A DNA stretch of 52,719 bases. Source: Candidatus Rifleibacteriota bacterium (GTDB taxonomy: Bacteria > Muiribacteriota > Ozemobacteria > Ozemobacterales > Ozemobacteraceae). Made by a program: the position numbers and the translations under genes. The stretch's first letter is position 1; each line of letters starts with the position of its first letter. The notes below the pieces were generated by a model. It saw nothing but the letters and a program-made list of their open reading frames with translations, was not told the DNA's origin and searched no databases. Positions 3,467 to 23,147 of this stretch are shown here, one piece after another. Where the stretch lies: positions 1 through 52,719 of the forward strand of contig JBMOKV010000522.1 in assembly GCA_049325495.1 (NCBI GenBank), given 5' to 3'.

Positions 3467-4828
3467 ATGCTTTTTTCTCTTGAAGAAGTCATTGAAACCA
3501 TTTCTCAGGTCGGTGTCGAAACCTTCGATATCCGCACCATAACCTGTGGAATTAACCTGCACAGCTGCATCGACCCCGATGTGAACCGCTGTGCTGAAAA
3601 GGTTTACCAAAAGGTGGTCAAGATTGCCAAAGATCTGGTGCCAACCGCCCGTGCCATTGAAAAGAAATTCGGCATTCCCATCGTGAATAAACGCATTTCT
3701 GTTTCACCGGTTGCTCATCTGGCCGGAGCTTTCACCGAGCCTACCGCCGTTCCCATAGCCTATGCTCTCGATCAGGCAGCCAAAGACCTGGGAATCGATT
3801 ACGTCGCAGGCTTCAGTGCCCAGATTCAGAAAGGCATTACCCGCGGCGACCAGATTCTTCTCAACTCTATACCAGATGCCCTTTGCCAGACTGATCGCGT
3901 ATGTTCTAGCGTTAACATCGGCAGTTCTCAGGCAGGCATCAACATGGATGGCGTATATCGCATGGCCGAAATAGTTAAAGAAGCGGCCGAGCGCTCTAAA
4001 GACAAAAATGGTCTGGCCTGTGCCAAGCTTGTAGTGTTCTGCAACGCTGTTGAAGACAACCCCTTTATTGCCGGTTCATTCCACGGACCGGGTGAAGGCG
4101 AAGCCATTTTAAATGTGGGAATTTCAGGCCCCGGCGTCGTTCGCGCCGCTCTGGCAAAGGCCGGAAACCTCAGCTTTGGTGAACTTTCTGAGCTGATCAA
4201 AAAGATCAGTTTTAAAATCACCAGAGTTGGTGAGCTTGTCGGTCGCGAAGCCTCAAAAGCCACCGGCATACCATTTGGAATTATCGACCTTTCGCTGGCC
4301 CCAACCCCGGCCGAAGGTGATTCCATCTCCGATATTCTAGAATTGATGGGGCTCGAACGCACCGGATGCCACGGCACTACTGCCGCCCTGGCAATGCTCA
4401 ATGATGCGGTTAAAAAGGGCGGCATGATGGCCGCAACTTATGCCGGCGGTCTGTCTGGCGCTTTCATTCCATTAACCGAAGACGCGGGAATGTGTCGGGC
4501 CGTTGAAGCGGGTGCTTTGAATATTCAAAAACTCGAGGCCATGACCTGTGTCTGCTCGGTTGGTCTCGATATGGTTGCAATTCCCGGAGATACCCCGGTA
4601 GATGTTATTGCCGGTATTATTGCCGACGAAGCTGCAATCGGCATGATCAATCACAAAACAACCGCCTGTCGTCTCATTCCGGTTCCGGGAATGGTCGCCG
4701 GCGACGTGGTCGATTTCGGAGGGCTGCTGGGAAAGGGCCCAATTATCGCAGTCTCGAAGGAGATGCCTACGGTTTTTGTCAGACGTGGCGGCCGCATTCC
4801 GCCACCGGTTCACAGTATGAAAAACTGA
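3467..4828 (+). CDS. PFL-like UPF0210/DUF711 family protein
   Basis: DIRTIT.GI, VNKRISVSP, KLVVFCNAVEDNPF, EAMTCVCSVGLDM, RGGRIPPP motifs. Confidence 0.92.
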   Translation: MLFSLEEVIETISQVGVETFDIRTITCGINLHSCIDPDVNRCAEKVYQKVVKIAKDLVPTARAIEKKFGIPIVNKRISVSPVAHLAGAFTEPTAVPIAYALDQAAKDLGIDYVAGFSAQIQKGITRGDQILLNSIPDALCQTDRVCSSVNIGSSQAGINMDGVYRMAEIVKEAAERSKDKNGLACAKLVVFCNAVEDNPFIAGSFHGPGEGEAILNVGISGPGVVRAALAKAGNLSFGELSELIKKISFKITRVGELVGREASKATGIPFGIIDLSLAPTPAEGDSISDILELMGLERTGCHGTTAALAMLNDAVKKGGMMAATYAGGLSGAFIPLTEDAGMCRAVEAGALNIQKLEAMTCVCSVGLDMVAIPGDTPVDVIAGIIADEAAIGMINHKTTACRLIPVPGMVAGDVVDFGGLLGKGPIIAVSKEMPTVFVRRGGRIPPPVHSMKN

Positions 4829-4845
4829 ATTATGGTTCTTTATCG

Positions 4846-4886
4846 CAGCCCTGAAAACCAGATGACGGTTTTCGGGGCTGTTTTTT
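4846..4886 (+). terminator. Rho-independent terminator after the ACT-DUF711 operon
   Basis: cagccctgaaaacc / ggttttcggggctg stem followed by T6. Confidence 0.8.
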
Positions 4887-4890
4887 AAAT

Positions 4891-7839
4891 ATGGCTGTAA
4901 ACAAAAAAAAATCTGGAAAAGGCTTTTTTAATACCCTGCTGTTGATTCTGGCAGTTTGCATTCCTTTTTTTTCAGCAGCCTTTTATCTTGATAAGGTTAA
5001 TCAGGATCAGATTCAGCGAGTTCTTATGACTGAAAAAGCCCGGGTTATTTTTGAAATGAATCGATTTTCAGACGCTCTTGATCCGGCGAGATACATTGAA
5101 AAATGCATGAGTTTGACCGAAGAAAAACTCGCTTTGCGATCTGGTCTTATATCTGAAACAGACCCGCGTCTTTTCGATCGGCAGACTTCAACAAAAATTA
5201 AATCCTTCATCTGGAAAAACTTCCAGTTGAAGCCCGTTCTTATTGCTTCAACTGGTTTTGCCGGGCGTGATTTCTGGGCAGAATTCTCTGATGACTTCCA
5301 AAGCTTTGCGGCAGATGATCTGCAGGTTTTGAAGAATACTCTCTGTTCCTATCTGATTCTCAAGGTCATGCAGCGCAACCTGTACCAGAACTCTGAAATT
5401 TACGAGCGTTTACAGAAACTGATGATTGATGGTGAGAACGTTTTTGAAATTAACCGGGAAAAAATCGATGGAATTTTAAGCGATTTTTTGGCTCCTGCCA
5501 TACATTATCCAGAATATCCGGGAAACTGCGAAGAAATTTTTACCACCAGGTTTTCTTCCGACAAAATTTTTCTTTATTACAGCGGCAGTAGCGCCGGCAA
5601 CCTTTTCTATGGCGGCTATTTCATAGTTTTTGCAACCCGAGATCTTCCCTATCAGAAAATTTTATCGGATGCGTTGAAATCTTCCGGTGGTATTAAGCGG
5701 GCAATCGTGAACCATGGCGGTGAATTGAATGAATTGCTGGTAGAAGATTCAGCGGATATAGATTGCTACCGGGAGATACCCGGATATGTTAATTTATCAA
5801 AGCTAAAATTTAAACAAAATTTTGAAAAATCAGTTTTTTACTTGAAAACTTCCTGCTCTAAAAGTCTTGTTCTGGAAGACTTGAAGTGGTTCAATGCCAA
5901 CCTTGGTTTTATGCAGCGCATGGTCATTCTATTCATTTCAGGCATTTTAGTTTTCTCATATCTTTTTGGAATTCATGCACCCGGCAAACTTCGAGGTAAA
6001 TTTCTTTTTCTGGTCGGACTTTCAGTAATGCTTCCTTATGCAATCACCGGCTATTTCTCAGGTTTGACACTTGATTATGTCGATGGAATGAGGGAAAGAG
6101 AAAGTCTTGTCGCGGCCGAAAACCGACTTTTTGAAATAAGTCGGTCAGTAGAGGATTGTTCTCTTAAGCGGCAGTTGATCGTGCTTGAAGCAAAAAAAAG
6201 AATCGCCGACCTTTTATCGGCATGGCAGAATAAGCCCTCCGATCCTCTTGATCCAGCATCTTATCCGGGGCTCATACCCCAGTCACTGTCCGATGAGTTT
6301 ACGGTTTTTGATGCGGCCGGCGACGTGAGAGTTTTTCACAAAAATCCTGATCGATTCAGGGAGCCATATAAACTGGTAAGATTCCTGGGATACACCTACC
6401 TTGACAACATGGGGGTTCTCAAGCGGAAAAGTGGAAAGGTTAAAAGAGAGCTTGAGTTGGCCGGCCTTGCCTCTGGTTTTGCCTCCAACCTTCGTCGTGA
6501 TTACCTGGAGGGTCGAAACTTGCGTTTTGAAGGTGTAGAAATTATGAATCTTGCCAAGTTTAACCCCCTTCTGCGCATGTTTTTTCTCGTCTTCTCTCCA
6601 AAAATGCCGAAAGGTTCGCCAATAAATGCCATTGCCCTGGTTATTCTCAATGATCGGTTTTTGACCCAGCTTTTTGAGATTCTTTCTGTGCCAGGTAATC
6701 GCCTTTTTTCTGAGCAATCTAAGGGATTATCGCTTACGTATGTTCTGGGTATGAGAAATCACGAAAATTCTCTGGAAAAATGGTGGCCAAACAATGATCG
6801 CAACAGTGAAAAGCTGATTGATCTGTTGAAATTTGCCACATTAAGGGGCTACAGTGGCAGTGAAGTGCAAAAAATCGGGCAGATTTTTTCTGGGCGAATC
6901 TGGCAATATGATGCTGATTCCAAGTATGTTATTGCCGGAATTTTTTCTTCAGAACCCGACAATCTGTTGCGCCTGCTTTTTTATCTGTTTCCTTCAGCTG
7001 CGCTGGTCTTTTCTTTTATCAGCCTGCTGTTTCTCGGAGATTTTCTTGTAGAATTTTTTGCACGGCCAGTTACTGCATTTATTCCTGCATTGAAGGAAAT
7101 CAAAGAGGGAAATTACCAGGTAAGAATAAATATGGATGCCGGTGATGAGCTGGATCTTCTTTCTTCATCATTCAATCAGATGGCCGAGGGGTTGCAGCAG
7201 CGGGAAAGAATGCGAAGGTTCATTCCGGGCCAATTGTTTCAAAGAGTCGAGGATTCTGGTGCCGCAGACAAAAGAAGTTTACAGCGCCGGCATTTGTCGT
7301 TGCTTGCTTCTGATATTAGAGGGTTTACAACCTTGAGCGAAAAAGAAAAACCCGAAGATATGGTTAACTGCCTGAATGATTATTTTTCTGCAATGGAAGA
7401 GGCAGTTGTGGCTAATGGCGGAGAAATAGAAAGATTTATCGGCGATGCAATTATCGCGGTTTTCTATCCGGATAAGAATTTGAGTTCTGCATTTAAAGCT
7501 TTGAAAGCTGCATTGAAAATGAAAGAATGCCTCGAAACTTTTAACCGGCAGCGAAAAGAAAAGGGGCTTTTCCAGATTTTGAACGGAGTTGGAATCGTCA
7601 CCGATTATGCCTGGGTTGCAACTACGGGAATTCGTTCGGGTCGGCGAGTTCATATGGTGTTTGGCGAAATTGTGGCAAGGGCAAATCGACTTGAAGCTTT
7701 GACTGCAAATTTGGTCGGAAGCCGCATTGCTTTGTGTGAAAATACCAGAAATGCAAACCCTCAGGTTGCTTTTAAAAAGATCGATACTGATCAGGCTGTT
7801 TTTCAACCTGAAATAGACGGGGTTGCCCATGGCAGTTGA
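4891..7839 (+). CDS. Membrane HAMP + class III cyclase, type A1 (metal-binding half)
   Basis: TM segments, HAMP (PVTAF...GDELDLLSSSFNQMAEGL), ASDIRGFT and ERFIGDA; lacks the DK, T..N and KGK residues. Confidence 0.9.
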   Translation: MAVNKKKSGKGFFNTLLLILAVCIPFFSAAFYLDKVNQDQIQRVLMTEKARVIFEMNRFSDALDPARYIEKCMSLTEEKLALRSGLISETDPRLFDRQTSTKIKSFIWKNFQLKPVLIASTGFAGRDFWAEFSDDFQSFAADDLQVLKNTLCSYLILKVMQRNLYQNSEIYERLQKLMIDGENVFEINREKIDGILSDFLAPAIHYPEYPGNCEEIFTTRFSSDKIFLYYSGSSAGNLFYGGYFIVFATRDLPYQKILSDALKSSGGIKRAIVNHGGELNELLVEDSADIDCYREIPGYVNLSKLKFKQNFEKSVFYLKTSCSKSLVLEDLKWFNANLGFMQRMVILFISGILVFSYLFGIHAPGKLRGKFLFLVGLSVMLPYAITGYFSGLTLDYVDGMRERESLVAAENRLFEISRSVEDCSLKRQLIVLEAKKRIADLLSAWQNKPSDPLDPASYPGLIPQSLSDEFTVFDAAGDVRVFHKNPDRFREPYKLVRFLGYTYLDNMGVLKRKSGKVKRELELAGLASGFASNLRRDYLEGRNLRFEGVEIMNLAKFNPLLRMFFLVFSPKMPKGSPINAIALVILNDRFLTQLFEILSVPGNRLFSEQSKGLSLTYVLGMRNHENSLEKWWPNNDRNSEKLIDLLKFATLRGYSGSEVQKIGQIFSGRIWQYDADSKYVIAGIFSSEPDNLLRLLFYLFPSAALVFSFISLLFLGDFLVEFFARPVTAFIPALKEIKEGNYQVRINMDAGDELDLLSSSFNQMAEGLQQRERMRRFIPGQLFQRVEDSGAADKRSLQRRHLSLLASDIRGFTTLSEKEKPEDMVNCLNDYFSAMEEAVVANGGEIERFIGDAIIAVFYPDKNLSSAFKALKAALKMKECLETFNRQRKEKGLFQILNGVGIVTDYAWVATTGIRSGRRVHMVFGEIVARANRLEALTANLVGSRIALCENTRNANPQVAFKKIDTDQAVFQPEIDGVAHGS

Positions 7840-10720
7840 AAAGATCATCATCCGGCGTCAAATAAGCTGGGGGCTTTTGTTTGTCCTTTGGCTGCTTCTG
7901 TTGGCAATTCCAGCTGTTTTTCTTGATTTTTCTCTTGCATATTTGTTCAAGTTTTCATTTGAAAGAAATTGTTCGGCGAAAAAATCCTGGCTGGTGAATG
8001 AAATAGAATTGTTTCGCCAGAAAATCGATGCGGAAAAATTTTTGCAGAGTAAGCTTATTGAATTTTTCCACAGTCGCGATTTTATGGCAGAAAGTCTCAA
8101 TGCTGCCGAAATCGCCAGAAGTTTTCAAAAAAAATCCGGGATAATTCCCTCGGCGGTTTTTATTAATGATTCTGAATTGAACGATCAGGTGTGTTTTTTT
8201 GTCAAAGAAGAATTTTTTAATAAGATTGGCTTTATTGGCAGATCCTTAACCCGAAAATACATGAATTCCCGTCAACTTCAGGAAAAACTTTTTTCCGACA
8301 CCGAAATTTCCGGTGACGAGCTGGTGTCAAACCGGATCAGGCAACAGATCGATGAAGCTGACCTTTTTTTAATGAAGCAGTTTTCTCTGGTTTCCCCATG
8401 CCCGGTTATGTCTGGGCAGGTTTTCTCATCAGTTTCTGCCAGAGCGAACGATCGCCTGTTTTTCTATTATGGCTCTCTTCCGTCTGTCAATACGGGGATA
8501 ATGATGATCTTTTCAGGGATGGATCTTGACCTTAAGAAAATTTTAAAAGAAAGTTTGATTTCTGACTCTGCGTTTATACAACGATCTTTTGCTTTGAAGA
8601 AAATGATTGCAGATGATCTTGTTCAGCCAGAAGCAGAAAAAATTACCGAGTTCGTGAGCAACGAAAAAGGCATTCAACTTCAGGCACCTTTGCCACAGCC
8701 TTTTTTGTCTTTGTTAATACAGAATTCCGGGTTCTATCCCCATAGAATCGAGCAGTTTCGTCAGTTTTTGCCGATTCTGAAAGTGTCTATTCATTCTGAC
8801 CAGTTACAGCACCCACTGAAAAGATGGCATGGGACTATTAAATCTCTCAGCAAATCAGCGGTTTTGGCGGGGTTGCTTTTTTGTTTTTATTTCGGACTGT
8901 TTGGTTTTTCCTTAAAAGCAGGAGTCAGACAAAAAGCAGTGTTTGGAATCGCGATGATTGCCTGGCTTCCACTTGCCATGATGATGGCATCATACCTGAG
9001 CTGGCGTGAAATTTCCCTGGTGCGCTACGGTTTCGAAACCGATGACCGATTATCGCAAATCGCAAATGATATGGCACTGCGCTTTGATTCTTTTCTTTTG
9101 AAACAGCAGAAAATGACCCGTAAGATTGCAGATAAAATTGAAGAGATTGTCAATTCTGACAAAGATTCTCTTACCGGTTTAATAAACAGAGAAATCTCTT
9201 CTACTTTTGCCAGAGAGGCTTTTTATGATGTCGTTGATCGTGAAGGGGTTTATGTAAAAACCGGCAAAGCTCTGGTAAACCCGGAAGCCGACCGCAGCGA
9301 AAATTTCATGAGACATGCGTTGGCAGTAAGTCTCTTGCAGGCAGTTTCTTATAAAAAACAGTCAAAGATTGAAAAATTTTCCAACTACGAAGACCAGGGC
9401 CTCTTCAGGCCAAATCCAGAATTTATCAACTCTCTGTTGAACAAGAAAACCAGACTTTTTACTTTTAAATCATTCAATTCAAATTATGCCTATACTTTAG
9501 AACCGGTTTCTTCTGCAAAAATAGGAACAGTGAAAAGTTTTATCTGTCTGCGTTTTGAAAAAGACGAGTTGATAAGGCAGTTTATTAAAACTTTTGAAAG
9601 CTTCGAACAAGATGGAATTGAATTGAATTTTGTAAAATATCGTGAAAATATTGGTGTTTTCAGATACGAACCAATGCGTAATTTTTATAGTTTATCTGAA
9701 CTTCAGCCGATTCTTGATCTTGTGCTGACCACAAAAAGATCGCGATTGGTTGATCTTAAAAATTCCCGAAGTCTGATTTTTTTTATTCCTGATTATCCGT
9801 TTTTGATTATCTGTCAGTCTCAGAAAAAAATTGGAGAAAACGACCGGAAAATGGTTTTTCTGGTGATTTTTTACATGACTTTTCTTGTGTTTGTTATTTT
9901 CAGACTTTTCGGCAGTCTTTATGTTACGCCGTTAATGCAACTGTCACAGGTTGCCAGAGATGTGGCAGATGGCAATTATTACAGTTCTGCCAGCATAAAC
10001 ACATTCGATGAATTTTTTCAATTGAATAAAACATTTGATTTAATGATAAAAGGTGTGATTCAGAAAGAAAAACTGTTGCAGTTCGTTTCATCTGATGTTG
10101 CACAGGCCGTAAAAAGCAACGATGATTCATCGCTTTCTCCGGGAGGTGAAAGGGTCGAGGCAACTATTGCTTTTATTACCATCGCTGGTATCGAACAGAT
10201 GCTCGAAAACACTGATTCTGAAAAGCTTCTGGATATTCTTGAAACATTCATTGCTGCAGGAAACAAAATTGCTGCGCAAAATAATGGTGTTCTGGATAAA
10301 GTTATCGAAAATACACTTATGCTGGTATTTCGCGGTATGGCAAATGGGCAATCTGATGCTTTAAGGGCATGCACCTCGGTTTTGCAGATGCAGAAACTCA
10401 TGGCACAAGAAAATATGCCTATTCAGGCGGGTATTGCCAGCGGTTTCGTCGTTTCGGGTAAGATTGGTTCGCGATCAGGCAAACTTGATTTTACCGTTAT
10501 CGGTGACCCGGTAAATCTGGCGGCAAGGCTGAAAGGTCAGGCTTGTAAAGCTTGCCAGACCGGCATTCTGATAAGCGCTTCAGTTATCAGAAAGGCGCGT
10601 GGTATGGTTAAGGTGAATTTTATCGAGCGGGTCAGCCTGAAAGGAAAAACCCGAAAATACCAGCTTTATGAGCTTGTTTCTTTAAGAGTGGCAACGAATT
10701 GCGAGGAGAAACCGTGTTGA
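7829..10720 (+). CDS. Membrane HAMP + class III cyclase, type B1 (substrate/transition-state half)
   Basis: HAMP (PLMQL...DEFFQLNKTFDLM); GGERVEATI, DKVIEN, DFTVIGDPVNLAARLK, LKGK; both metal Asp lost (FITIAG, IENT). ATG 7829 overlaps the A1 stop. Confidence 0.9.
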   Translation: MAVEKIIIRRQISWGLLFVLWLLLLAIPAVFLDFSLAYLFKFSFERNCSAKKSWLVNEIELFRQKIDAEKFLQSKLIEFFHSRDFMAESLNAAEIARSFQKKSGIIPSAVFINDSELNDQVCFFVKEEFFNKIGFIGRSLTRKYMNSRQLQEKLFSDTEISGDELVSNRIRQQIDEADLFLMKQFSLVSPCPVMSGQVFSSVSARANDRLFFYYGSLPSVNTGIMMIFSGMDLDLKKILKESLISDSAFIQRSFALKKMIADDLVQPEAEKITEFVSNEKGIQLQAPLPQPFLSLLIQNSGFYPHRIEQFRQFLPILKVSIHSDQLQHPLKRWHGTIKSLSKSAVLAGLLFCFYFGLFGFSLKAGVRQKAVFGIAMIAWLPLAMMMASYLSWREISLVRYGFETDDRLSQIANDMALRFDSFLLKQQKMTRKIADKIEEIVNSDKDSLTGLINREISSTFAREAFYDVVDREGVYVKTGKALVNPEADRSENFMRHALAVSLLQAVSYKKQSKIEKFSNYEDQGLFRPNPEFINSLLNKKTRLFTFKSFNSNYAYTLEPVSSAKIGTVKSFICLRFEKDELIRQFIKTFESFEQDGIELNFVKYRENIGVFRYEPMRNFYSLSELQPILDLVLTTKRSRLVDLKNSRSLIFFIPDYPFLIICQSQKKIGENDRKMVFLVIFYMTFLVFVIFRLFGSLYVTPLMQLSQVARDVADGNYYSSASINTFDEFFQLNKTFDLMIKGVIQKEKLLQFVSSDVAQAVKSNDDSSLSPGGERVEATIAFITIAGIEQMLENTDSEKLLDILETFIAAGNKIAAQNNGVLDKVIENTLMLVFRGMANGQSDALRACTSVLQMQKLMAQENMPIQAGIASGFVVSGKIGSRSGKLDFTVIGDPVNLAARLKGQACKACQTGILISASVIRKARGMVKVNFIERVSLKGKTRKYQLYELVSLRVATNCEEKPC

Positions 10721-13680
10721 ATTCTGATGTTGCGATGAAAACAAAATTGCAGCCCGGCTCTCAAAATCGTATTTCGAATATTCTTCTAGGCTTAACCCTT
10801 GTTCTTTTAATTTTGCTGCCCGCAAATTTCATTGCAGAGGGTATTGCCGGTGCGGCAAAGCAGAACTTTGAGCGCCAGAAAGTATCTGCTCTGCTTGAAC
10901 TTCAGCATGAGTTGCTGCGCTTTAAACTTGACCTTATACCCAGATACCAGGCTGAAAGTATTATTAGAGATGTGGAAAAAGCCTGCGGTCTTGTACCGCT
11001 GGGGCAGAAGGTGCCTAACTTCGGATCCGGGCAGTTTCCAGACGTTTATAATGATTCGACCCTTGCACAGATGCTGGCAAAATTTAAATTACTGCATGAT
11101 GTTGAACCGGTTTTTCTGCTTACTGCATCAGCTGATCTGGCAAAAATTAAAGCTTTTTACAGTAATGATCTGAAAGACCTGCCGGAAAGTGACAAAAAGT
11201 CGCTTGAAGCAAACGTTGCATGTTGCATTACCGACTTGAGTGCTCTAAAGAGTGTGGTTAACGATCCTTTGGCCGAAGAACGTTTTTCGCAGCTTTTCAA
11301 ATCTGCCAGAGGGTCATACAAAAACCAGTCAGATTCTCTCTATGTCGTGTTGAGAAAGGTATTTTCAGAATTATACTGCAATCCCCGATATCATGGCAGC
11401 ACCTACGAGATTTGTGGCGACCGTTTTGGCAGCCTGCGAATGTTTCTGCATTATAATCGCATGAAAGAAAGGGAAAAATTTTACGGTGGATATTTTGTGG
11501 TATTGGCAAGCAAGGATTTAGAACCGGAAACCCTGATGAAAAAAGCTTTGAGGCCCGCAATTCCTGGTCTGATCAGAGGTTTTGGCGACCAGGCAAAATT
11601 CGACAAGGCCAGTCTTTATCTTGAAAGTTTGACTTCCGGGGAAATTTTCGGCTATTCAAGGCTTTTTAATGAAAATTTTAAGATTCCCGAAAAAATCTTT
11701 GTATCCAGATCTTTGAATGAAGAAATCAAAAGATATAAACAAATTAAAACAAATGTTTCAATGGCAAAAAAAATTGTTCTTTTGATTTCAATTTTTCTTC
11801 TGGCTGCAATAGCTCTCAGGGGTTGGCCAGACCCTGGTCGATTGAAACTCCAGCTTCTTTTGATGATCAGTCTGATAGTTCTGATTCCGTATGTGGTTCT
11901 CGGCTACTTGTCTTTCATGCTTCTTGATGGCATCGACAAACTTAGACCTGAAGAAGCAAGGGCTGAAATTGAAAGACACCTTTATGAACTTGAAAGATAC
12001 TATGAAGACCAGAAACTGCAGCATTTAGCAAGATTGTTTGCCGGAAAACAGCGGCTGATTACTCATATGAGCGATTCGGATAAAAATTTTGATGAGCTTG
12101 ATGCCCACAAAATTGTGGAGTCCGATTTTCATGGCAATTTTTTCTTTTATCGAGATGATGGCTATTCTCGCAAGTTTGCCTCAGGGGTAATACAAAGCAA
12201 ACGTTCTCTTCGGCTCTATGAACAGATTAGCGCAAGTATTCTGTCTAACCTTGGTTTTCTCGACAAAAATTCAGGTAAAGCAAAGAAAGATCTCGAATTT
12301 TCCAGCCTGACCGATGGATTTTTGTCCGAATCAAAACGAGGATTTCTGGAACACGAAATTTTTACCAGAGAAGGTGTTGAGGTCGTTGATTTCAGCAAAG
12401 TTGACGATTTTTCCCGAATTGTTTTCTTTCTGATTCCGCAAAAAAATAAAGTGAATTCAACGGTTAAGGGATTGGTGATTGCGCCGGTAGCCGATATAAA
12501 CACCAACATATATCAGCAGCACAATTTCAAGGATTCCGTTTTTTTCAAGCATACTTTGTTTTCTCAGGCAAACCTTTCATTGGGAATGAGGAGAGGAAAC
12601 GATACTCTAAGTCAGTGGTGGCCTGATAAAATTGGTTCAAGCAGCAATTTGAAGCGATTGCTTGATTTTTCATCAATTACTCATAGTAGTGGTAGTCTGG
12701 TCAAAAATGGTGAGCGCAGTATTGATATAGATAAATGGCTGTTTAAAAAGGGTGAATCAATGGTTTTTGCTGCTCACATTCAAAGCAATTCAAATATTGC
12801 CATTGAACTTTATGCCAGAATCTTTCCGCTGCTGCTGTTTCTTTTTTCACTGATCTCTCTTTTTCTTTTTGCCGACCTGCTGGATTCGCTGTTTATCGCA
12901 CCGGTCTATGGGCTATCTAAAGCTGCCAGACTCATTGGTCTGGGAAATTACCAGGTGCGACTTCAGGTTGCCGGACAGGATGAGCTTGCTGAATTGTCCA
13001 AGTCGTTCAATCAGATGGCTGACAGTCTTGCTCAGCGTGAGAAACTCAGGCGTTTTATTTCTGAGGATCTTTTTCAGCAGATCAAGGTTCAAAAAAGCAA
13101 TTTTGAAGCTCAGAAGCTGACATGTAGAAACCTGACTGTTCTTGCTTCTGACATTCGTGGTTTTACCGCGATTTCAGAAAAATATAATCCAGAAGAGGTC
13201 GTCAGTCTTTTAAATGATTATTTTACTGAAATGGAAGCCGCCATTACTGCATATGGTGGGCATATCGTCAGATTTGTCGGCGATGCAGTAATAGCAGCTT
13301 TTTACCATGACGATCCTGAGATCTCTACCATGAATGCGGTTAAGGCGGCCTTGAAGATGCGAGAAGCCCTGATGGATCTTAATCGGCGGCGCCTGGAACT
13401 TAAGCTTTTTACTATAGAAAATGGAATCGGTATTGCATCTGGCCAGGCTTTTGCCGGCGTTGCCGGTGCTGCACAGGGACGAAAGGTATTCTGTGTTGTC
13501 GGTGACTTGACAATGAGAGCTGAAGAGCTTGAGGCGATGAGCAAAATGTCCAATTTCAACCGAATCCTGTTGTGCGAAAAATCCGCTGAATGTGCCCGCA
13601 ATTCTTTAAAACTGGTCAGGCTTGAAACAAAAAATGATTCAGCGCCAGTTTATGATCTGGTTGGAGCCTGCGATGTCTGA
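10714..13680 (+). CDS. Membrane HAMP + class III cyclase, type A2 (metal-binding half)
   Basis: GTG start with GAGGAG RBS overlapping the B1 stop; HAMP (QDELAELSKSFNQMA); ASDIRGFT, VRFVGDA; degenerate FCVVGDLTMRAEELE; no KGK. Confidence 0.9.
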   Translation: MLNSDVAMKTKLQPGSQNRISNILLGLTLVLLILLPANFIAEGIAGAAKQNFERQKVSALLELQHELLRFKLDLIPRYQAESIIRDVEKACGLVPLGQKVPNFGSGQFPDVYNDSTLAQMLAKFKLLHDVEPVFLLTASADLAKIKAFYSNDLKDLPESDKKSLEANVACCITDLSALKSVVNDPLAEERFSQLFKSARGSYKNQSDSLYVVLRKVFSELYCNPRYHGSTYEICGDRFGSLRMFLHYNRMKEREKFYGGYFVVLASKDLEPETLMKKALRPAIPGLIRGFGDQAKFDKASLYLESLTSGEIFGYSRLFNENFKIPEKIFVSRSLNEEIKRYKQIKTNVSMAKKIVLLISIFLLAAIALRGWPDPGRLKLQLLLMISLIVLIPYVVLGYLSFMLLDGIDKLRPEEARAEIERHLYELERYYEDQKLQHLARLFAGKQRLITHMSDSDKNFDELDAHKIVESDFHGNFFFYRDDGYSRKFASGVIQSKRSLRLYEQISASILSNLGFLDKNSGKAKKDLEFSSLTDGFLSESKRGFLEHEIFTREGVEVVDFSKVDDFSRIVFFLIPQKNKVNSTVKGLVIAPVADINTNIYQQHNFKDSVFFKHTLFSQANLSLGMRRGNDTLSQWWPDKIGSSSNLKRLLDFSSITHSSGSLVKNGERSIDIDKWLFKKGESMVFAAHIQSNSNIAIELYARIFPLLLFLFSLISLFLFADLLDSLFIAPVYGLSKAARLIGLGNYQVRLQVAGQDELAELSKSFNQMADSLAQREKLRRFISEDLFQQIKVQKSNFEAQKLTCRNLTVLASDIRGFTAISEKYNPEEVVSLLNDYFTEMEAAITAYGGHIVRFVGDAVIAAFYHDDPEISTMNAVKAALKMREALMDLNRRRLELKLFTIENGIGIASGQAFAGVAGAAQGRKVFCVVGDLTMRAEELEAMSKMSNFNRILLCEKSAECARNSLKLVRLETKNDSAPVYDLVGACDV

Positions 13681-16543
13681 TAAAACAATCAAAACCAGCG
13701 TTTCAATTTCTGCCGTTACCATTTTTCTGTGCTGGTTGACCGTGTTTCTTTTTCCGGCCGTAACTTTCAGACTATGCCTGGATTGGTTGTTTGACCTTAC
13801 TTACCAGACTGGCTGCCGTGCCGCCCAACGCGAAATGGTAAATGAAATGACCGCCTTCAGAGATCAGGCTCGCACTGTTCCTTCTCTTGAACGCATGTTG
13901 AGAGATTTTTGCAGAGAAAACACTCATACAGCAGATGTTCAGAACCCGGAAAAATTCAGGGAAAGATTGTTAAAAACTTATGGAATACCAGCTGCCTTAT
14001 GTATAACCCATGGAAAAGACTCCGAAGAACTTGAATTCTTTATTCAAAAGGATTTTTCAGACAGGATCAAAGTTTTTCCAAGAAAGCTTACCCAGAAAGC
14101 GCTTTTTGCTTTTAATAATCAACATCAGCATTGCTTTTTTTCAAAGAAAAATGAGGCGGCGACAAAAAGAATATTTGAAAAAGATGGCTCCCAGGAAGTT
14201 TTTCGCTCGGCAAGGTTGTTTCTCAAACAGCATTTTGCTCTGATAGCTGAAATGCCTCTATTGGAAGATCGCGTTATAAAAACCATTTCCGGCAGGTTGG
14301 GAGGCCCGGTCTATTTTTATTATCATGCTTTTCGCGAGAATATAAATGGGAGGCCGGGAATCAGTAATGGTGTTTTGCTGCTGCTGGCAGGTAATCAACT
14401 GAACTATCGCCAGATTCTTGAGAATTCTCTGGTTTCTGAAAATGCCAGAGTAACCAGAAGTTTTGCTCGACTTCCGGTAATCTTGCCTGGACAGTATCGC
14501 AATGACAATTCCATTTTCAGTCATTTCGTAACCGGGCCAGAAGGTTTTACACTCAAGGGAATGTTATCTCAGGAAATGGTAGCTGATTTAATTCAAAGAG
14601 GCACTTTGTTTCCCTTGAAGTTTTCTCAAACTCTCGAAAGAATGCCGGTTCTCGAAGTTACCACAGGCAGAGCTTTAATGCAGCACCCACTAACCCCTTA
14701 TAACCGTCTGATTAATCTGCTGTTACGCCTTTTTGTGGCTGGTGGTGGGATTTTTCTTCTTCACATGTACTTCTTTGGACTGCAGTTTCTGAAAGGCGTG
14801 CGTCAGAAAATTATCATTGGTTTATTCTTTATTCTGCTTCTGCCCGGTAGCCTGGTTTTGGTTGCCATGCTTACCTGGTTCGAATCTGGCCGGCTGGAAT
14901 CAAGGTATTTAACCGAAAATCGGCTGAAAAATATCTCTGAATCATTTCAGCAGAAGTTTCAGGATTATCTTACTTCGGCCCAGTTTGCCACCCTGCAACT
15001 GACAAAAAGAATTGAAGAAAAGGCTGCCAGAATCGGTTCAAAAGAGCTTGAAGCTGAATTGCAGAAATTTCTTGAAAATTCAGATGCGCACATGATTGGC
15101 TGTGATGATCTTGTCTATGGCCCGTTTTACTTATCTACTTCAGAAGCAAAAGGTGTTTTTAAGAATGAAGAAGACATGCTTAAAACCACTTCCCGGACCG
15201 TTCTTAATTCATTCAGACACGATGGCGGGTTCGATATCAATCTTGCCGACGCAGGCAACAGTTTTACCACAGTTCACCCATCATTTATAAATGAAATTTT
15301 GAGTTTTTGGGGAAGACTTGTGGAGTTTGGCCGGTTTTCGACTGGCAACAGGTTTTCAATCGTACCTGTTCTTTTTCCCGGAATGTCTTCACCGCGCGCA
15401 TTTATTATTGCATGCTTTTCTCAGAAAAATCTGATCAGGGGATTTGTCAGAAACAAAATACAGGGTTCCTATGATTTTCCCGGTTTGAAAATATTCTTTT
15501 TTGAAAAACAAGTGGGTGGCCACCGTTTCTTCGATGGTGGCTCAGGTAAAACCGTAACCGATTCTGCCACGGTAAAATCTTTGGATGATGCTTTGAAAGG
15601 CAGCGATATAATTGTGAGTGATTTTTCGGGAGGAATTAGATTTCAGCAGGTTCTGGTCGATTTTCCGGTGATTCTGCAGATTGATGGTCATTTTCCGAGA
15701 ACTGGTTCTGACAGAATCAGTGATTTTGCTTTGCTTGCCACATTGGCAATTTTGTTGTTCTCATTTGCCTGGATATATTTTGGGCGCATTTATCTTGAGC
15801 CGGTTCACGAATTCACCCGGATTACCAGACTGCTGTTTGCCGGAAATTACCAGGTTAGTCCGAATATTTTTTCGGTCGATGAATTTGGTGAACTTAAAAA
15901 AGCATTTGATTCGATGATTGAAGGCATTTATCAGAAGGAAAAAATGTCACAGTTCGTTTCTGCAGAAGTATTGCAGACCATCAATGACGAAAGTTCCGCA
16001 ACCTTTCAACCTGATGGCGAGAGAATCGAGGCAACCATATCATTTGTAAGATTTCCTGCCCTGAATCTGCTCAAAGATCCCGAAAAAATTGCCGAAAAAA
16101 TTGGCCAGATCATTGAACTGGTTGAAAAAGCCGCGGCCAGCCATGGCGGCATAATTGATAAAATTATTGAAGACACGGTAATGCTTGTTTTCAGAAAACC
16201 ATCATCACATGCTGTTTCATGCTGTAATGCATTAATCGAAATCAAGGAAAGGGCTGAGCAGCTTGAAATGAAGATTGAGGCCGGCATTGCAACCGGAGAA
16301 GTGGTAATGGGCCGGATTGGTTCGCGCCTGGGAAAATTGGATTTTACCGTGATCGGCGATGCGGTCAACCTTGCTGCGCGACTGAAAGCGCATGGTAAGA
16401 AAGCGGTCGCCACCGGCATAATCATTGCCCCGTCAACCATCAGAAAAGTTAAAGGTCAGGCCCGGGTCGCTTTTATCGACCGGGTTGAAATAAAAGGTAA
16501 AAGCAGAGCTTTTCAACTTTATGAGCTTGCCGGCTTAAGGTAG
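13673..16543 (+). CDS. Membrane HAMP + class III cyclase, type B2 (substrate/transition-state half)
   Basis: ATG 13673 with GGAG RBS overlapping the A2 stop; HAMP (DEFGELKKAFDSM); FVRFPA (first Asp lost), DKIIED, DFTVIGDAVNLAARLK, IKGK. Confidence 0.9.
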   Translation: MSDKTIKTSVSISAVTIFLCWLTVFLFPAVTFRLCLDWLFDLTYQTGCRAAQREMVNEMTAFRDQARTVPSLERMLRDFCRENTHTADVQNPEKFRERLLKTYGIPAALCITHGKDSEELEFFIQKDFSDRIKVFPRKLTQKALFAFNNQHQHCFFSKKNEAATKRIFEKDGSQEVFRSARLFLKQHFALIAEMPLLEDRVIKTISGRLGGPVYFYYHAFRENINGRPGISNGVLLLLAGNQLNYRQILENSLVSENARVTRSFARLPVILPGQYRNDNSIFSHFVTGPEGFTLKGMLSQEMVADLIQRGTLFPLKFSQTLERMPVLEVTTGRALMQHPLTPYNRLINLLLRLFVAGGGIFLLHMYFFGLQFLKGVRQKIIIGLFFILLLPGSLVLVAMLTWFESGRLESRYLTENRLKNISESFQQKFQDYLTSAQFATLQLTKRIEEKAARIGSKELEAELQKFLENSDAHMIGCDDLVYGPFYLSTSEAKGVFKNEEDMLKTTSRTVLNSFRHDGGFDINLADAGNSFTTVHPSFINEILSFWGRLVEFGRFSTGNRFSIVPVLFPGMSSPRAFIIACFSQKNLIRGFVRNKIQGSYDFPGLKIFFFEKQVGGHRFFDGGSGKTVTDSATVKSLDDALKGSDIIVSDFSGGIRFQQVLVDFPVILQIDGHFPRTGSDRISDFALLATLAILLFSFAWIYFGRIYLEPVHEFTRITRLLFAGNYQVSPNIFSVDEFGELKKAFDSMIEGIYQKEKMSQFVSAEVLQTINDESSATFQPDGERIEATISFVRFPALNLLKDPEKIAEKIGQIIELVEKAAASHGGIIDKIIEDTVMLVFRKPSSHAVSCCNALIEIKERAEQLEMKIEAGIATGEVVMGRIGSRLGKLDFTVIGDAVNLAARLKAHGKKAVATGIIIAPSTIRKVKGQARVAFIDRVEIKGKSRAFQLYELAGLR

Positions 16544-16593
16544 ATTTGTCTTTATCGCTGTTTATTAAAATGCACGAAAGGAATCCTCAGGCT

Positions 16594-16956
16594 ATGGAGA
16601 ATCAGAACGTTCAACAGCCTTCGGAAAATGAAAATTCCTATGGTTTGTTTCTGCCGGTTGAATTCAGTGGTTTCAGGGTATTTTTCTGGTATTCTTTCGT
16701 ATTTTTGATTTTTTCCTTGATGGCATCTGTAGTTTTGAACAGCATAAGACCAGATGGCACTCTGGTAGTGGTTTTTGGTTACCTGAATTCCTTATGTTTT
16801 GGATTTGCCTTCTTGTATGAAAACCGGATTCGCTGGTTCAAGGGAAAGGTTTATTCAGCTCTTTTCATTTTCTGTCTGGTTTTATGGGCGCTTTTTTCAA
16901 TAGTTCTCGCCTTTTTATTCCTGATAAATACCATATTTGTCGGTGGATTGCATTGA
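16594..16956 (+). CDS. Small membrane protein (about 3 TM)
   Basis: Three hydrophobic stretches; immediately downstream of the cyclase cluster; start codon uncertain. Confidence 0.55.
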   Translation: MENQNVQQPSENENSYGLFLPVEFSGFRVFFWYSFVFLIFSLMASVVLNSIRPDGTLVVVFGYLNSLCFGFAFLYENRIRWFKGKVYSALFIFCLVLWALFSIVLAFLFLINTIFVGGLH

Positions 16957-19503: not shown

Positions 19504-20901
19504 ATGAATAAAATAATTAAAGTAATTGTTTTAAAAATTTGTTTTGTAATTGTTGCTTTCCATTCCGTTTTGGCAGGTGAGGCTTCTGTTATGCAATACG
19601 ACCTGAATATTCCCGGTGTGACTCTTGAAATGCTCAATGCCGATTTCTGGGTAAATCTCAATGATAACCACGATGACCTGATAATGGATGAAGAAGAAAT
19701 TCAGCGTTTCAATCGAAATAATCTGCGCCAATGCAAGGTATTGAAAGATCTGCGAAATTACAAAAAAATCCTTTCGGGCGATGAGGTGCGCAGTTTGATC
19801 GCCAAAGTCAGCTCAAGACCCGAAAGCAAGCGCTATCTGAATGGGCAGCTCCTGGGTTCTGAATACTTTGCCACCCTCGAAGAGAATTTGAACACTTTTG
19901 CCGTTCCTGAAATCGTTACCGCCCGATACGGCATAACCGTAAAAAGAACAGAAATGCGAGCCTTTCCGACTTTTGACCGGGTTTTTTCTGAGCCCGATGA
20001 CATTGAGACCGACCGTTTCATCGAAACGGCACTTTATCCTGTTGAACCTCTGGTAATTCTGCACCAGAGCCTTGATCAGAAATGGTTTCTGGCTCAGGCC
20101 TACAACTATCTGGCATGGGTTCCCGTCGAAGCGGTGGCTTTGACCAGTCGCAAAGAGCTTTTCGATTATGTCGATGCCAAACCATTTCTTGTTGTAACCG
20201 GCAAAGGTGTTCTGACCGCTTTTAACCCGGTTAATCCTGACATATCAGAACTACAGCTCGACATGGGAGTACGTGTTCCTCTGGCAAAACGCGAAGAGAT
20301 TCCTCTTGATATCGATGGTCAGCACCCGGCAGGAAACTATGTGGTGAAACTTCCGGTTCGCGACGGCAAAGGAAAATTGCAGTTCAAGCTTGGTCTTATC
20401 GCAATGGCCGATGATGTTAGAGCCGGTTACCTTCCCCTGACCAGACGAAATATTATCAAACAGGCTTTTAAATTTCTCGGCCAGCGCTACGGCTGGGGCG
20501 GGATGTTCAACACCCGTGACTGCAGTGCCTTTATCATGGATAATTTTCGCAGCATGGGTGTTCTTCTACCGCGAAACGCCGGAGAACAGGGAAAGATGTC
20601 GTTCGGTGTCACCCACGAATTTACCAGGGATATGACGGTTGAGCAACGATCTGCTGTTTTCGACCGGCTTTCTGCGACCCCGATTTATATGAATGGCCAT
20701 GCAATGCTGTTTCTCGGAAAATTTGAAGATGATTATTACATTATTCACGATTTCGCAGGCTTTCGTGCCCCTGACGAAAGCGGAAAAATGAAATCCTCCA
20801 AAACCCGATGCGTCTTTGTCACCCCCTTGCTGAAAACCTTTCTTTCAAGCGGCAAAAAATATATCGAAGGGCTTTATGCAGCCCGTGAATTCAATTTTTG
20901 A
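19504..20901 (+). CDS. SH3 + NlpC/P60 gamma-D-Glu-diamino acid endopeptidase (YkfC-like)
   Basis: Signal peptide; SH3-like region; YGWGG...RDCSAF (Cys), GHAML (His), IIHD. Confidence 0.88.
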   Translation: MNKIIKVIVLKICFVIVAFHSVLAGEASVMQYDLNIPGVTLEMLNADFWVNLNDNHDDLIMDEEEIQRFNRNNLRQCKVLKDLRNYKKILSGDEVRSLIAKVSSRPESKRYLNGQLLGSEYFATLEENLNTFAVPEIVTARYGITVKRTEMRAFPTFDRVFSEPDDIETDRFIETALYPVEPLVILHQSLDQKWFLAQAYNYLAWVPVEAVALTSRKELFDYVDAKPFLVVTGKGVLTAFNPVNPDISELQLDMGVRVPLAKREEIPLDIDGQHPAGNYVVKLPVRDGKGKLQFKLGLIAMADDVRAGYLPLTRRNIIKQAFKFLGQRYGWGGMFNTRDCSAFIMDNFRSMGVLLPRNAGEQGKMSFGVTHEFTRDMTVEQRSAVFDRLSATPIYMNGHAMLFLGKFEDDYYIIHDFAGFRAPDESGKMKSSKTRCVFVTPLLKTFLSSGKKYIEGLYAAREFNF

Positions 20902-20919
20902 GAAATTACGGAGCACAGA

Positions 20920-22008
20920 ATGAAAATTACCAATATTAAAACCGGTGTGATTTCGATACCTTTGATAACCCCTTTTAAAACTGCGTTAAGAACAATTAAC
21001 AGCATAGGTTCGATGGTGATAGCCATAGAAACCGACGATGGAGCTGTTGGTTTTGGCGAAGCTCACCCGACCGGCCCGATTACCGGCGAATCAATGGGAA
21101 GCGTGCGCGGCGCAATACATGAATTCATTGTTCCCAAACTTAAAGGAAAAGATATTGCCAATCTTGAAGACACACTCAACAGCCTCGACCATGCTCTGGT
21201 AAAGAATACAAGTGCCAAAGCCGCGGTTGAAATGGCAGTGTTCGACCTGTTTGGAAAACTTTATCGCATTCCTCTTTATCGAATGCTCGGCGGCTACCGT
21301 CAGCAAATTGAAAGCGACCTTACAATAAGTGTTAATAGCCCTGAAGAGATGGCTGCTGACACCCAATTGGCCATTAATCGAGGTTTTCGCATTCTGAAAG
21401 TCAAAGTCGGTCTCGACCCGGAACTTGATATTCGCAGAATCAGAGCGGTTCGCGAAGCAGCCGGGCCCCAGGCGGTGATCAGAGTCGATGCAAATCAGGG
21501 CTGGTCGGTCAGAGATGCCGTGCGAATCATGAAAACACTCGAACAGGCACAGCTCAATATTGAGCTGGTCGAACAGCCCGTAATTGCCCACGATTTCGCG
21601 GGTCTCAAAGAGGTGAAAGATCGCATCGATACGCCGGTTCTTGCCGATGAAGCAGTTTTTTCGCCGGTCGATGCCCAGACCATAATCGATATGAGAGCCG
21701 CTGATTTTATCAATATCAAACTGATGAAAACCGGTGGTTTGAGGGCGGCTTTGAGAATCTGCGCCCTGGCCGAAATGCACGGCGTCGAATGCTTTATGGG
21801 ATGCATGATGGAAAGCAAGCTAAGTGTTACTGCTGCTGCCCATCTTGCCTGTGCCCGTTCGATCATTACCCGATGCGACCTTGACAGCCCCGCCCTTTGC
21901 AAAACTGATCCGATTCAGGGTGGTGTCGAAATCGACGGCCCTTGGCTGAAAGTAACCGAAGCCCCGGGTCTGGGAATTGAATCGATAGACGGTGTAATCT
22001 GGGACTGA
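20920..22008 (+). CDS. ykfB: L-Ala-D/L-Glu epimerase (enolase superfamily)
   Basis: PFKTALR, KVKVG, DANQGW, EQP, DE, NIKLMKTGG, GCMMES, DLD motifs; next to NlpC/P60. Confidence 0.9.
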   Translation: MKITNIKTGVISIPLITPFKTALRTINSIGSMVIAIETDDGAVGFGEAHPTGPITGESMGSVRGAIHEFIVPKLKGKDIANLEDTLNSLDHALVKNTSAKAAVEMAVFDLFGKLYRIPLYRMLGGYRQQIESDLTISVNSPEEMAADTQLAINRGFRILKVKVGLDPELDIRRIRAVREAAGPQAVIRVDANQGWSVRDAVRIMKTLEQAQLNIELVEQPVIAHDFAGLKEVKDRIDTPVLADEAVFSPVDAQTIIDMRAADFINIKLMKTGGLRAALRICALAEMHGVECFMGCMMESKLSVTAAAHLACARSIITRCDLDSPALCKTDPIQGGVEIDGPWLKVTEAPGLGIESIDGVIWD

Positions 22009-22142
22009 AAAAAAATATAAAAATTGTTACTTTTGATTTGATCGTTACGTATTAGTCCTCACAATGCAAAAATCACTTTCATTGTACAGAGTTTTTGTCT
22101 ATAATTATCCATAAGTAGTATAAGGAGTATAAGAGGTTTGCT

Positions 22143-23147
22143 ATGAAGAGACTGAATTATGTATTAAGTATTGCTCTGTTGCTCGTTCTGGCCGCTTTTT
22201 CAGCACCGGCTTTCGCTGACATCGATCAGCCTGATTATCAAAAAACCCATTATCCTGATTTTGCCGTTTCCGGTAAAACCTACGATAAGACCCAGACCGA
22301 AGAATTCACCATGGATTGCGCCGTTAATAACATCATCATTTCAGTTGATGCCGATGTCGCAAAAAATGCCATGTTCAGAGGCTATGTTCGATTTCAGTAT
22401 GCCCAGAGCGGCAAATGGACGAACTATCTTGCTTTCGACGGTGAATACCATTTTTCTTCAGTTAACACCGTATCAGCTTACCAGATGATGTTTGTGGTTA
22501 CCGACCCCGAAAAAGGCGATACCAGACTCAATGCCGTTACCGTTAATGGCAATTACATTGCCGAAGAAGCCATGGAATATTTTATTCAGAAGCCACTTCC
22601 TTTCTCTCCTCAAAAGGTAGTTGCAAAGCCCGCTACTGTCAGTCGCGCAGCCTGGGGCGCAAGACCACCGAAAAATTCTTACACTCAACATCAGGTTCAG
22701 CGCCTGATCGTTCACCACAGCTGGATTCCCAATCAGTCTCAGTATAAAGGTGCAACCAGCATTCGCGGCATTCAGAGCTACCACATGGATGACCCCAAGA
22801 CCAAATGGTCCGATATTGGCTACCATTTCCTGATCGGGCCTGAAGGAACAATCTATGAAGGTCGCCCCGAAACCGTCGTTGGTGCCCATTGTTCGCCCAA
22901 TACCAACTCAGTTGGCATCTGCCTGATCGGCGATTATGACCCGGGTAAAGATCCGATCCCTCCGGTCATGGAACAGTCGCTTCTCAAGATTCTCAACTGG
23001 CTTGCTTCCAAATACAATGTTGACCCGCGGGTTAACCTTTACGGGCATTGCGATTTTTCAACCAAATCATGCCCCGGCAAAAACGTTTATGATCGGTTGC
23101 CCCAGTATAAAGAAGCCATTTTGAAAGAAATCGGCGAAAACAAATAA
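22143..23147 (+). CDS. Secreted N-acetylmuramoyl-L-alanine amidase (Amidase_2/PGRP-like) with an extra N-terminal domain
   Basis: Signal peptide; SRAAWGA, IVHHS, WSDIGYHFLIG...EGR, GAH, GHCD...SCPG zinc-amidase motifs. Confidence 0.9.
   Translation: MKRLNYVLSIALLLVLAAFSAPAFADIDQPDYQKTHYPDFAVSGKTYDKTQTEEFTMDCAVNNIIISVDADVAKNAMFRGYVRFQYAQSGKWTNYLAFDGEYHFSSVNTVSAYQMMFVVTDPEKGDTRLNAVTVNGNYIAEEAMEYFIQKPLPFSPQKVVAKPATVSRAAWGARPPKNSYTQHQVQRLIVHHSWIPNQSQYKGATSIRGIQSYHMDDPKTKWSDIGYHFLIGPEGTIYEGRPETVVGAHCSPNTNSVGICLIGDYDPGKDPIPPVMEQSLLKILNWLASKYNVDPRVNLYGHCDFSTKSCPGKNVYDRLPQYKEAILKEIGENK

Follow-up and report, generated by a model that had tools for sequence, protein, structure and literature searches.

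In class III cyclases a complete active site takes its pair of aspartates from one subunit and its lysine, asparagine and arginine from the other. Heterodimers in which such a site is split between unlike partners are textbook knowledge for animals, and cyclases with a HAMP domain are known as well (e.g. Rv3645 and Rv1319c). Here we describe a unit of four receptor genes, termed A1, B1, A2 and B2, in a stretch of 52,719 nucleotides (the window), which is one whole contig (labelled C522) of a Riflebacteria-type metagenome-assembled genome (MAG; G000). Judging from the residues kept in their catalytic domains, we consider it likely that this one four-gene unit encodes two obligate heterodimeric receptor adenylyl cyclases, A1-B1 and A2-B2, each made of cognate partners.

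As in the vertebrate enzymes AC1-9 (layout TM1-C1-TM2-C2; TM, transmembrane), the pair of metal-binding aspartates lies on one domain and Lys, Asn and Arg lie on the other, which would give one active and one degenerate site. The likeness extends to fused chains with two membrane modules and two cyclase domains, found in the same genome and in its relatives. Unlike in AC1-9, the halves in the window are four separate open reading frames (ORFs), and the single-chain form occurs only in paralogs such as C278:5128-11184; instead of 6-TM bundles there are four TM segments, two large periplasmic domains with a predicted double-Cache (dCache)-like fold and a HAMP domain, and the host is a bacterium. 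The accessible part of PMC9552081 presents pseudoheterodimeric membrane cyclases as eukaryotic enzymes that arose by duplication and fusion of a bacterial monomer, with their origin in early eukaryotes. The mycobacterial Rv1625c/Cya is, according to the accessible part of PMC9433096, a homodimer with two nucleotide sites. Like it, the window chains are anchored in the membrane and carry, behind a helical or HAMP transducer, a class III cyclase for which dimerisation is required, but each of them is without half of the residues and has a fixed partner gene next to it. In soluble guanylyl cyclase (alpha/beta) and in chytrid rhodopsin-cyclases two different sensor chains likewise combine into an active class III cyclase (PMC8815786 and PMC8196705, in their accessible parts); these systems, however, are eukaryotic, rely on haem or rhodopsin sensors and are without the periplasmic double-sensor scaffold.

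On the sensor side, the A1 models resemble dCache domains (Tlp3, PctA, Mlp24, DctB, LuxQ) in a predicted long N-terminal helix followed by two PAS-like modules, with about 200-220 of some 240 residues aligning, and differ from these receptors in having two such domains per chain, with a TM hairpin between them. For GlnX of Corynebacterium glutamicum the accessible part of PMC9769921 reports four TM segments and two periplasmic domains per chain, established by PhoA/LacZ fusions, and its authors see a duplicated sensor mimicking a receptor dimer. The window chains have the same number of TM segments and periplasmic domains, here by prediction, but while the GlnX domains, as described there, are four-helix bundles of ~155 amino acids (aa) with almost no cytoplasmic output, those in the window are alpha/beta domains of ~300 aa, followed by a HAMP domain and an enzyme. 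With most subscription journals outside the coverage, the literature yielded neither a natural split-site cyclase heterodimer from bacteria nor a receptor in which a TM hairpin separates two dCache-type domains, and nothing on signalling was found in the accessible parts of the literature on Riflebacteria. The receptor frame, in which each chain has two unlike dCache-like domains and each dimer has four, also appears to be undescribed.

The four genes are as follows; TM and domain limits are predicted.

4891-7839, + strand: A1, ORF of 982 aa; TM1 at aa 9-36, periplasmic domain 1 at ~37-336, TM2/TM3 at 337-389, periplasmic domain 2 at ~390-691, TM4 at 692-724, HAMP at 733-770, cyclase at 802-955
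7823-10720, + strand: B1, longest ORF 965 aa, probable start ATG at 7829, inside the end of A1; four-TM, two-domain layout like A1, weak HAMP match (14.9 bits), cyclase at aa 779-944
10699-13680, + strand: A2, longest ORF 993 aa, probable start GTG at 10714 behind GAGGAG, inside the end of B1; HAMP at aa 739-778, cyclase at aa 810-966
13622-16543, + strand: B2, longest ORF 973 aa, ATG at 13673 as a possible start, giving an overlap of 8 nucleotides (nt) with the A2 stop; weak HAMP match (16.5 bits), cyclase at aa 809-962

Neighbouring genes overlap or abut, the overlap being 7-59 nt depending on the choice of start, and A1-B1-A2-B2 form one tightly packed and probably translationally coupled unit.

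Division of the catalytic residues between A and B chains

The C-terminal parts of all four proteins match the Pfam model PF00211 (Guanylate_cyc), with 46.3 bits in A1, 40.0 in B1, 58.6 in A2 and 36.8 in B2 (cut-off 21.9). Read in the order metal Asp 1, substrate Lys, metal Asp 2, substrate Asp/Thr, Asn and Arg, the six catalytic positions are D R D M A R in A1 and D R D C M E in A2, T K N T N R in B1 and R K D T N R in B2. A1 has both metal aspartates and has lost the Asn, B1 has lost both aspartates and kept Lys, Thr, Asn and Arg, and no single window chain carries the full set of six, which is complete only across an A-B pair. The register was checked against bacterial structures, which are the nearest solved catalytic domains by sequence (2w01, 3r5g and photoactivated cyclases). 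The A1 motifs SDIRGFT and FIGDA fall on SDLRGFT and FMGDG of 2w01, with an Ala at the Asn position, and in B1, set against CyaB (3r5g), Thr and Asn occupy the two Asp positions, with T, N and R retained.

The MAG of 4.9 Mb has 69 PF00211 matches, and we aligned the cyclase domains from its 69 cyclase-bearing ORFs, calling A-like those that keep both aspartates and have lost Asn and/or Arg, and B-like those that have lost the first Asp and keep K/T/N/R. This classification gives 23 canonical, 21 A-like, 22 B-like and 3 other domains. D96 and D140 are invariant in the 21 aligned A chains, as are K131, T196, N203 and R207 in the 14 aligned B chains, i.e. two homologous domains divide the catalytic residues reciprocally, in the manner of C1/C2. 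Given the two-subunit site of class III cyclases, this division implies that an A-B dimer would have exactly one competent site and A-A or B-B dimers none; an A/B heterodimer is therefore to be expected, and each pair probably makes cAMP only together. The retained Lys and Thr suggest ATP as the substrate and cAMP as the product. The same genome encodes 13 cyclic nucleotide monophosphate-binding domains (PF00027), so that receptors for cyclic nucleotides are on hand for its many cyclases.

Two further genes of the genome (C267:1379-4513 and C482:547-3591) encode 4-TM, two-domain cyclases with all six catalytic residues, and no member of the family adjoins either of them. We take both to be probable relatives of the paired family that form homodimers, and they provide an internal control: the complete site goes with unpaired genes and the split site with paired ones.

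Beyond this genome, 1037 representative protein clusters matched the sensor profile in a HMMER search at E <= 1e-3, 286 of them at E <= 1e-30. Among the 149 matches listed besides A1, 141 have one cyclase domain, one has two and 7 are short (389-705 aa); the 143 cyclase domains of these 142 proteins comprise 75 A-like, 65 B-like and 3 other domains, and none is canonical. These counts bear on an explanation in which A and B chains are non-catalytic pseudo-enzymes, acting as homodimers or monomers in nucleotide binding or as scaffolds, and in which their adjacency reflects tandem duplication only. Degenerate cyclase domains can indeed be regulatory in other proteins. Here, however, the losses are reciprocal and conserved across the listed matches, the kept residues are invariant within each type, and random decay would not keep exactly complementary halves, so that we find this explanation barely credible.

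Membrane topology and predicted sensor domains

A preliminary description of this DNA, made from its letters and ORFs, had read each chain as TM, a domain of ~300 aa, a TM-TM hairpin, a second domain of ~300 aa, TM, HAMP and cyclase, and this layout holds for all four proteins, with a cyclase of class III. A hydropathy scan places TM1 at ~10-50, the TM2/TM3 hairpin at ~340-420 and TM4 at ~675-740. TM1 is preceded by a Lys/Arg-rich N-terminus, TM2 and TM3 are joined by a Lys/Arg-rich loop of ~8 residues, and TM4 leads directly into the HAMP domain. The HAMP domain being cytoplasmic, both ~300 aa domains should be periplasmic, as predicted from hydropathy, the positive-inside loop and the position of HAMP, in agreement with the two large extracytoplasmic domains proposed initially. 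With the HAMP model PF00672 (cut-off 25 bits) A1 (30.9) and A2 (36.4) score above the threshold, while the matches of B1 (14.9) and B2 (16.5) fall below it, yet at the expected position. Pfam has no match in the first ~690 aa of any of the four proteins, and NCBIfam adds merely HAMP-level matches to sensor kinases.

The fold of the sensor half was approached with two AlphaFold2 models of A1. One covers aa 1-730 (m1110522ce1ad, from 39 family sequences) and has a mean predicted local distance difference test score (pLDDT) of 82.1 and a predicted template modelling score (pTM) of 0.69; the other covers aa 1-362 (m76ca0a51bb5a; pLDDT 91.1, pTM 0.85). Domain 2 was taken from the first of these models and domain 1 from the second.

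4999-5898, + strand: A1 periplasmic domain 1, dCache-like predicted fold comprising two alpha/beta modules and a long stalk helix
6058-6963, + strand: A1 periplasmic domain 2, dCache-like predicted fold

Nearly all Foldseek matches of both models in the PDB are double-Cache ligand-binding domains (E 1e-4 to 5e-2), including McpH, Mlp24, Tlp3, TlpQ, PctA, DctB and the HK1S-Z set; for domain 1 the best match is 9heh (E 1.3e-4) and the listing consists entirely of dCache ligand-binding domains. Pairwise superposition with VIA-align relates domain 1 to Tlp3 (6w3o_A, Z 6.8, root-mean-square deviation (rmsd) 8.8, 204/244 residues aligned) and PctA (5t7m_A, Z 6.5, 195/241), and domain 2 to Mlp24 (6ior_A, Z 8.0, rmsd 6.3, 208/241) and again to Tlp3 (6w3o_A, Z 6.7, 223/244). 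For A1, the initial question whether the sensors might be Cache-like is answered in the affirmative at the level of predicted folds. The ESM Atlas gave scores all below 0.9, to CSS-motif, CHASE4 and dCache clusters, which are leads, not evidence, and a wide VIA structure search with the domain-1 model was swamped by the long helical hairpin (60-120 residues aligned) and is uninformative for the alpha/beta part.

The sensor halves of A and B chains are homologous throughout (hhalign probability 99.7%, E 3.9e-26, 571 columns), and by this homology with the modelled chain, A1, the B sensors would be dCache-like as well. Between domains 1 and 2 hhalign shows no similarity in sequence (probability 0.4%); an internal duplication is therefore not detectable by sequence. 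Like the dCache domains they resemble, the periplasmic domains presumably bind ligands. In an alignment of 39 sensor halves nearly the sole conserved residues are a Pro in TM1 (A1 residue 25, at least 90% conserved) and a Pro in TM3 (A1 residue 382, invariant), both usually after Leu; an Arg-x-Lys motif in the TM2-TM3 loop is likewise conserved.

Duplication, loss and fusion of A-B pairs

In BLASTP comparisons A1 is 31% identical to A2 over 845 aa (E 4e-114) and B1 is 30% identical to B2 over 965 aa (E 2e-135), and the short motifs quoted for these likenesses in the preliminary description are all present in the translations of the four ORFs. A1 and B1 share 22% identity in the HAMP-cyclase part alone (E 4e-13), with a weak N-terminal match (E 2e-4). 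The resemblance within each type is far above chance. In the genome as a whole, an A and a B gene that complement each other lie side by side in 17 pairs. The A gene comes first in 14 of them (two on C522 and one each on C513, C463, C477, C489, C266, C326, C610, C232, C461, C468, C409 and C560) and the B gene in three (C403, C433 and C599), and most pairs consist of two genes standing alone.

A joint maximum likelihood tree (IQ-TREE quick, LG+G4) was calculated from 1041 alignment columns for 17 proteins of each type, with 2 canonical proteins as the outgroup. In this tree no A joins its own B; A and B chains fall into separate, mirror-image parts of the tree, with three matching clades on the two sides. 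The two pairs of the window together with those of C513 and C463 form a four-member subclade with SH-like approximate likelihood ratio test (SH-aLRT) support of 99 on both the A and the B side. The distance matrices of A and B chains are congruent as well (Mantel r 0.765 for 16 complete pairs, a value reached by 0 of 10,000 permutations). Since A1 does not group with B1, the claim that the A-B pair was duplicated as a unit stands. The idea of a single local duplication does not, as there are 17 adjacent pairs in the genome, and A1 and A2, although they resemble each other, are not sisters, the nearest relative of A1 being the A gene of C513 (36% identity). By their identities of 28-31% the two pairs of the window are evidently old paralogs.

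Comparison with sister genomes of the same genus is possible because the locus has a conserved anchor on its left.

3467-4828, + strand: DUF711 gene, conserved left anchor of the locus
4845-4881, + strand: terminator-like hairpin between the DUF711 gene and A1, with a 15-pair stem followed by a T run

The hairpin is the sole strong one of its kind and marks the left border of the four-gene unit, while a promoter scan gave 27 sites against a shuffled mean of 21.1, i.e. no excess over the shuffled expectation. In G005 (C3, 9602-16769), where the DUF711 protein is 96.7% identical and the DNA of the gene 81%, the gene is followed by one pair only, which is 45%/43% identical to A2/B2 and 28%/30% to A1/B1 and by these values orthologous to A2-B2. 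In G002 (C51, 2473-4482), where DUF711 is 98.5% identical, it is followed by a junction at which A1 aa 1-127 (69% identity) abut B1 aa 899-965 (78%), to all appearances a deletion scar. Behind it stand a 495 aa regulator-like gene, which by eye from its sequence we take to be a putative sigma-54-type activator, and another ORF. The single pair of G005 and the scar of G002 imply that whole pairs are gained or lost at the DUF711 locus. The receptors diverge far faster than their DUF711 neighbour, with identities of 25-58% across all segments.

These observations bear on a higher-order assembly, be it a dimer of heterodimers or a membrane array, in which the whole operon would build one eight-sensor machine. 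The packing of the operon is tight and multi-pair arrays recur in relatives, as judged from match spacing, but most pairs in the own genome are two lone genes and a sister species has A2-B2 alone at the DUF711 locus; each chain is already like a covalent sensor pseudo-dimer, as argued for GlnX in the accessible part of PMC9769921, but the closest relative of A1 lies on another contig. We regard such a machine as very improbable and prefer separate A-B heterodimers.

Some pairs have become single chains. On the minus strand of C278 (5128-11184) one ORF of 2018 aa combines 8 TM segments and four periplasmic domains with two cyclase domains, first an A-like one (DKDAKQ) and then a B-like one (GKETNR), making it a bacterial counterpart of the animal TM1-C1-TM2-C2 layout. 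Three more long ORFs are cut by contig ends, and each has an A-like cyclase domain followed by further TM segments. Open frames of ~2000 aa with two cyclase domains also occur in the relatives G014 and G009 and in the protein P0070, and given those in G014 and G009 the fusions are not assembly artefacts of the own MAG. G014 (2 contigs) has 58 cyclase domains and G009 has 63, and by match spacing they include tandem-array-like runs of 4 and 6 evenly spaced matches.

The fusions matter for another proposal of the preliminary description, namely that A1, B1, A2 and B2 of one operon also combine as A1-B2 and A2-B1, two pairs thereby giving four receptors. All A and all B chains keep complementary residues, so any A-B mix would be chemically competent, but the 28-31% identity between the window pairs leaves room for interface specificity. 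The four genes look co-transcribed and arrays of 4 and 6 genes recur in G014, if match spacing is taken as a guide; the overlap of the genes, however, favours co-assembly of neighbours, and the A-B fusions fix the partner in cis. A B-like gene without an adjacent A (on C217, see below) might borrow one, but A and B have diverged in step with each other from pair to pair, gains and losses concern whole pairs, and with at least 17 pairs per cell free mixing would scramble the signals. On balance a combinatorial array seems to us unlikely, and we infer heterodimerisation within cognate pairs, with exclusive cognate pairing.

With a threshold of E <= 1e-15 and scoring limited to 12 candidates in each genome, the sensor profile matched 47 of 50 further genomes from the same family in the genome collection and none of 36 genomes from ten other families of the phylum. 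Four of ten protein clusters looked up bear an organism name, all four of Riflebacteria type. A word-based search with the A1 sensor half found three relatives, of which the closest, with 72% identity, is named Candidatus Riflebacteria, while a locus search with A1 found no relative in the genome-contig and metagenome-contig collections.

A related layout also occurs with a different output. In 42 ORFs of at least 800 aa in the genome a SpoIIE/PP2C phosphatase domain stands in the place of the cyclase; these are mostly of the 4-TM, two-domain layout and lie in adjacent pairs or longer runs (e.g. C556:6942-46882, with 10 genes, C585:27290-38932 and C598:36734-42599). Against the A and B sensor profiles their sensors score weakly (about -4 to 51 bits), with no consistent A or B type.

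Around the receptor unit, the adjoining genes (DUF711, esterase, DUF819, NlpC/P60, MR/MLE epimerase and amidase) show no functional tie to it. An ORF of 136 aa (16546-16956, + strand), starting 3 nt past the B2 stop, is hydrophobic and probably encodes a small membrane protein; it matches no Pfam family and has no paralog in the rest of the genome (tblastn). Further downstream (19504-23147, + strand) lies a run of cell-wall peptide genes, by Pfam an SH3b plus NlpC/P60 peptidase, an enolase-superfamily MR/MLE enzyme and a protein with an N-acetylmuramoyl-L-alanine amidase domain, in which no tie to the receptors was seen.

The proposed receptor and its place in the family

In the mechanism we propose, each chain would cross the membrane four times and expose two different dCache-like domains in the periplasm, so that an A-B heterodimer would have eight TM helices and four distinct sensor domains. 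The sensors would converge on a HAMP four-helix bundle and a cyclase dimer, both built from A and B; to the cyclase dimer A would give the two metal-binding aspartates and B the substrate Lys/Thr and the transition-state Asn/Arg. A complete active site would form at the A-B interface only, the second, symmetry-related site being degenerate as in animal C1/C2. A heterodimer that brings four different sensor domains onto one hetero-HAMP and cyclase had been suggested at the outset, and the split catalytic residues lend support to it. The family would have grown by whole A-B pairs being duplicated, moved, lost or fused, and the two pairs of the window most likely sense different signals in parallel. 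A putative AND-gate logic of the sensors is plausible.

Several observations weigh against this reading. The genome is a MAG, 85.7% complete and in 677 contigs. The residue split is imperfect, as A1 retains the Arg at the Arg position and B2 the second metal Asp; the degeneracy is therefore not perfectly reciprocal. Next to a full-length B-like gene on C217 (946-3738; G K E T N R) no A partner can be recognised, the upstream gene being divergently transcribed and the overlapping downstream ORF matching no family profile; the B-like chain would need a partner in trans or be inactive. The B gene is disrupted in 2 of the 17 pairs (C513 and C463), either by decay (pseudogenisation) or by assembly error. 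In the tree, the branching of B chains within the four-member subclade is not resolved, and the nearest chain by identity is B2 for B1 and that of C513 for A1; the approximately unbiased (AU) test (p 0.089) does not reject a single origin for the split into A and B, nor is such an origin demonstrated. Finally, the fold matches of A1 are middling (Z 6-8, rmsd 6-10 Å) and the Pfam Cache models match 0 of 39 family members at E <= 0.05, for which reasons we call domains 1 and 2 dCache-like by predicted fold and not members by sequence.

With regard to the genes just named, the one on C217 alone, of all full-length split-site genes, seems to be an orphan, and it has a long tree branch. The B gene of C513 (3971-6824) is interrupted between TM4 and HAMP, and that of C463 (3435-6125) is without the C-terminal half of the cyclase domain; these two pairs are the closest to those of the window.

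A bolder version would have one family of Riflebacteria independently invent an animal-type C1/C2 split-site cyclase on an eight-helix, four-dCache receptor, expand it by whole-pair duplication and occasional fusion to dozens per cell, and mix partners in multi-pair operons, with the hetero-HAMP computing over four to eight sensor domains; taken as a whole this is decidedly unlikely in our judgement.

For the likely cognate heterodimers, the convergence of two or four ligand inputs onto one HAMP and one active site poses a testable question of signal integration. Separate-gene and fused forms occur in the same genomes, so the route from homodimer through heterodimer to pseudoheterodimer may be compared within one lineage, and the family as a whole is a natural experiment in insulating at least 17 paralogous dimers in one membrane.

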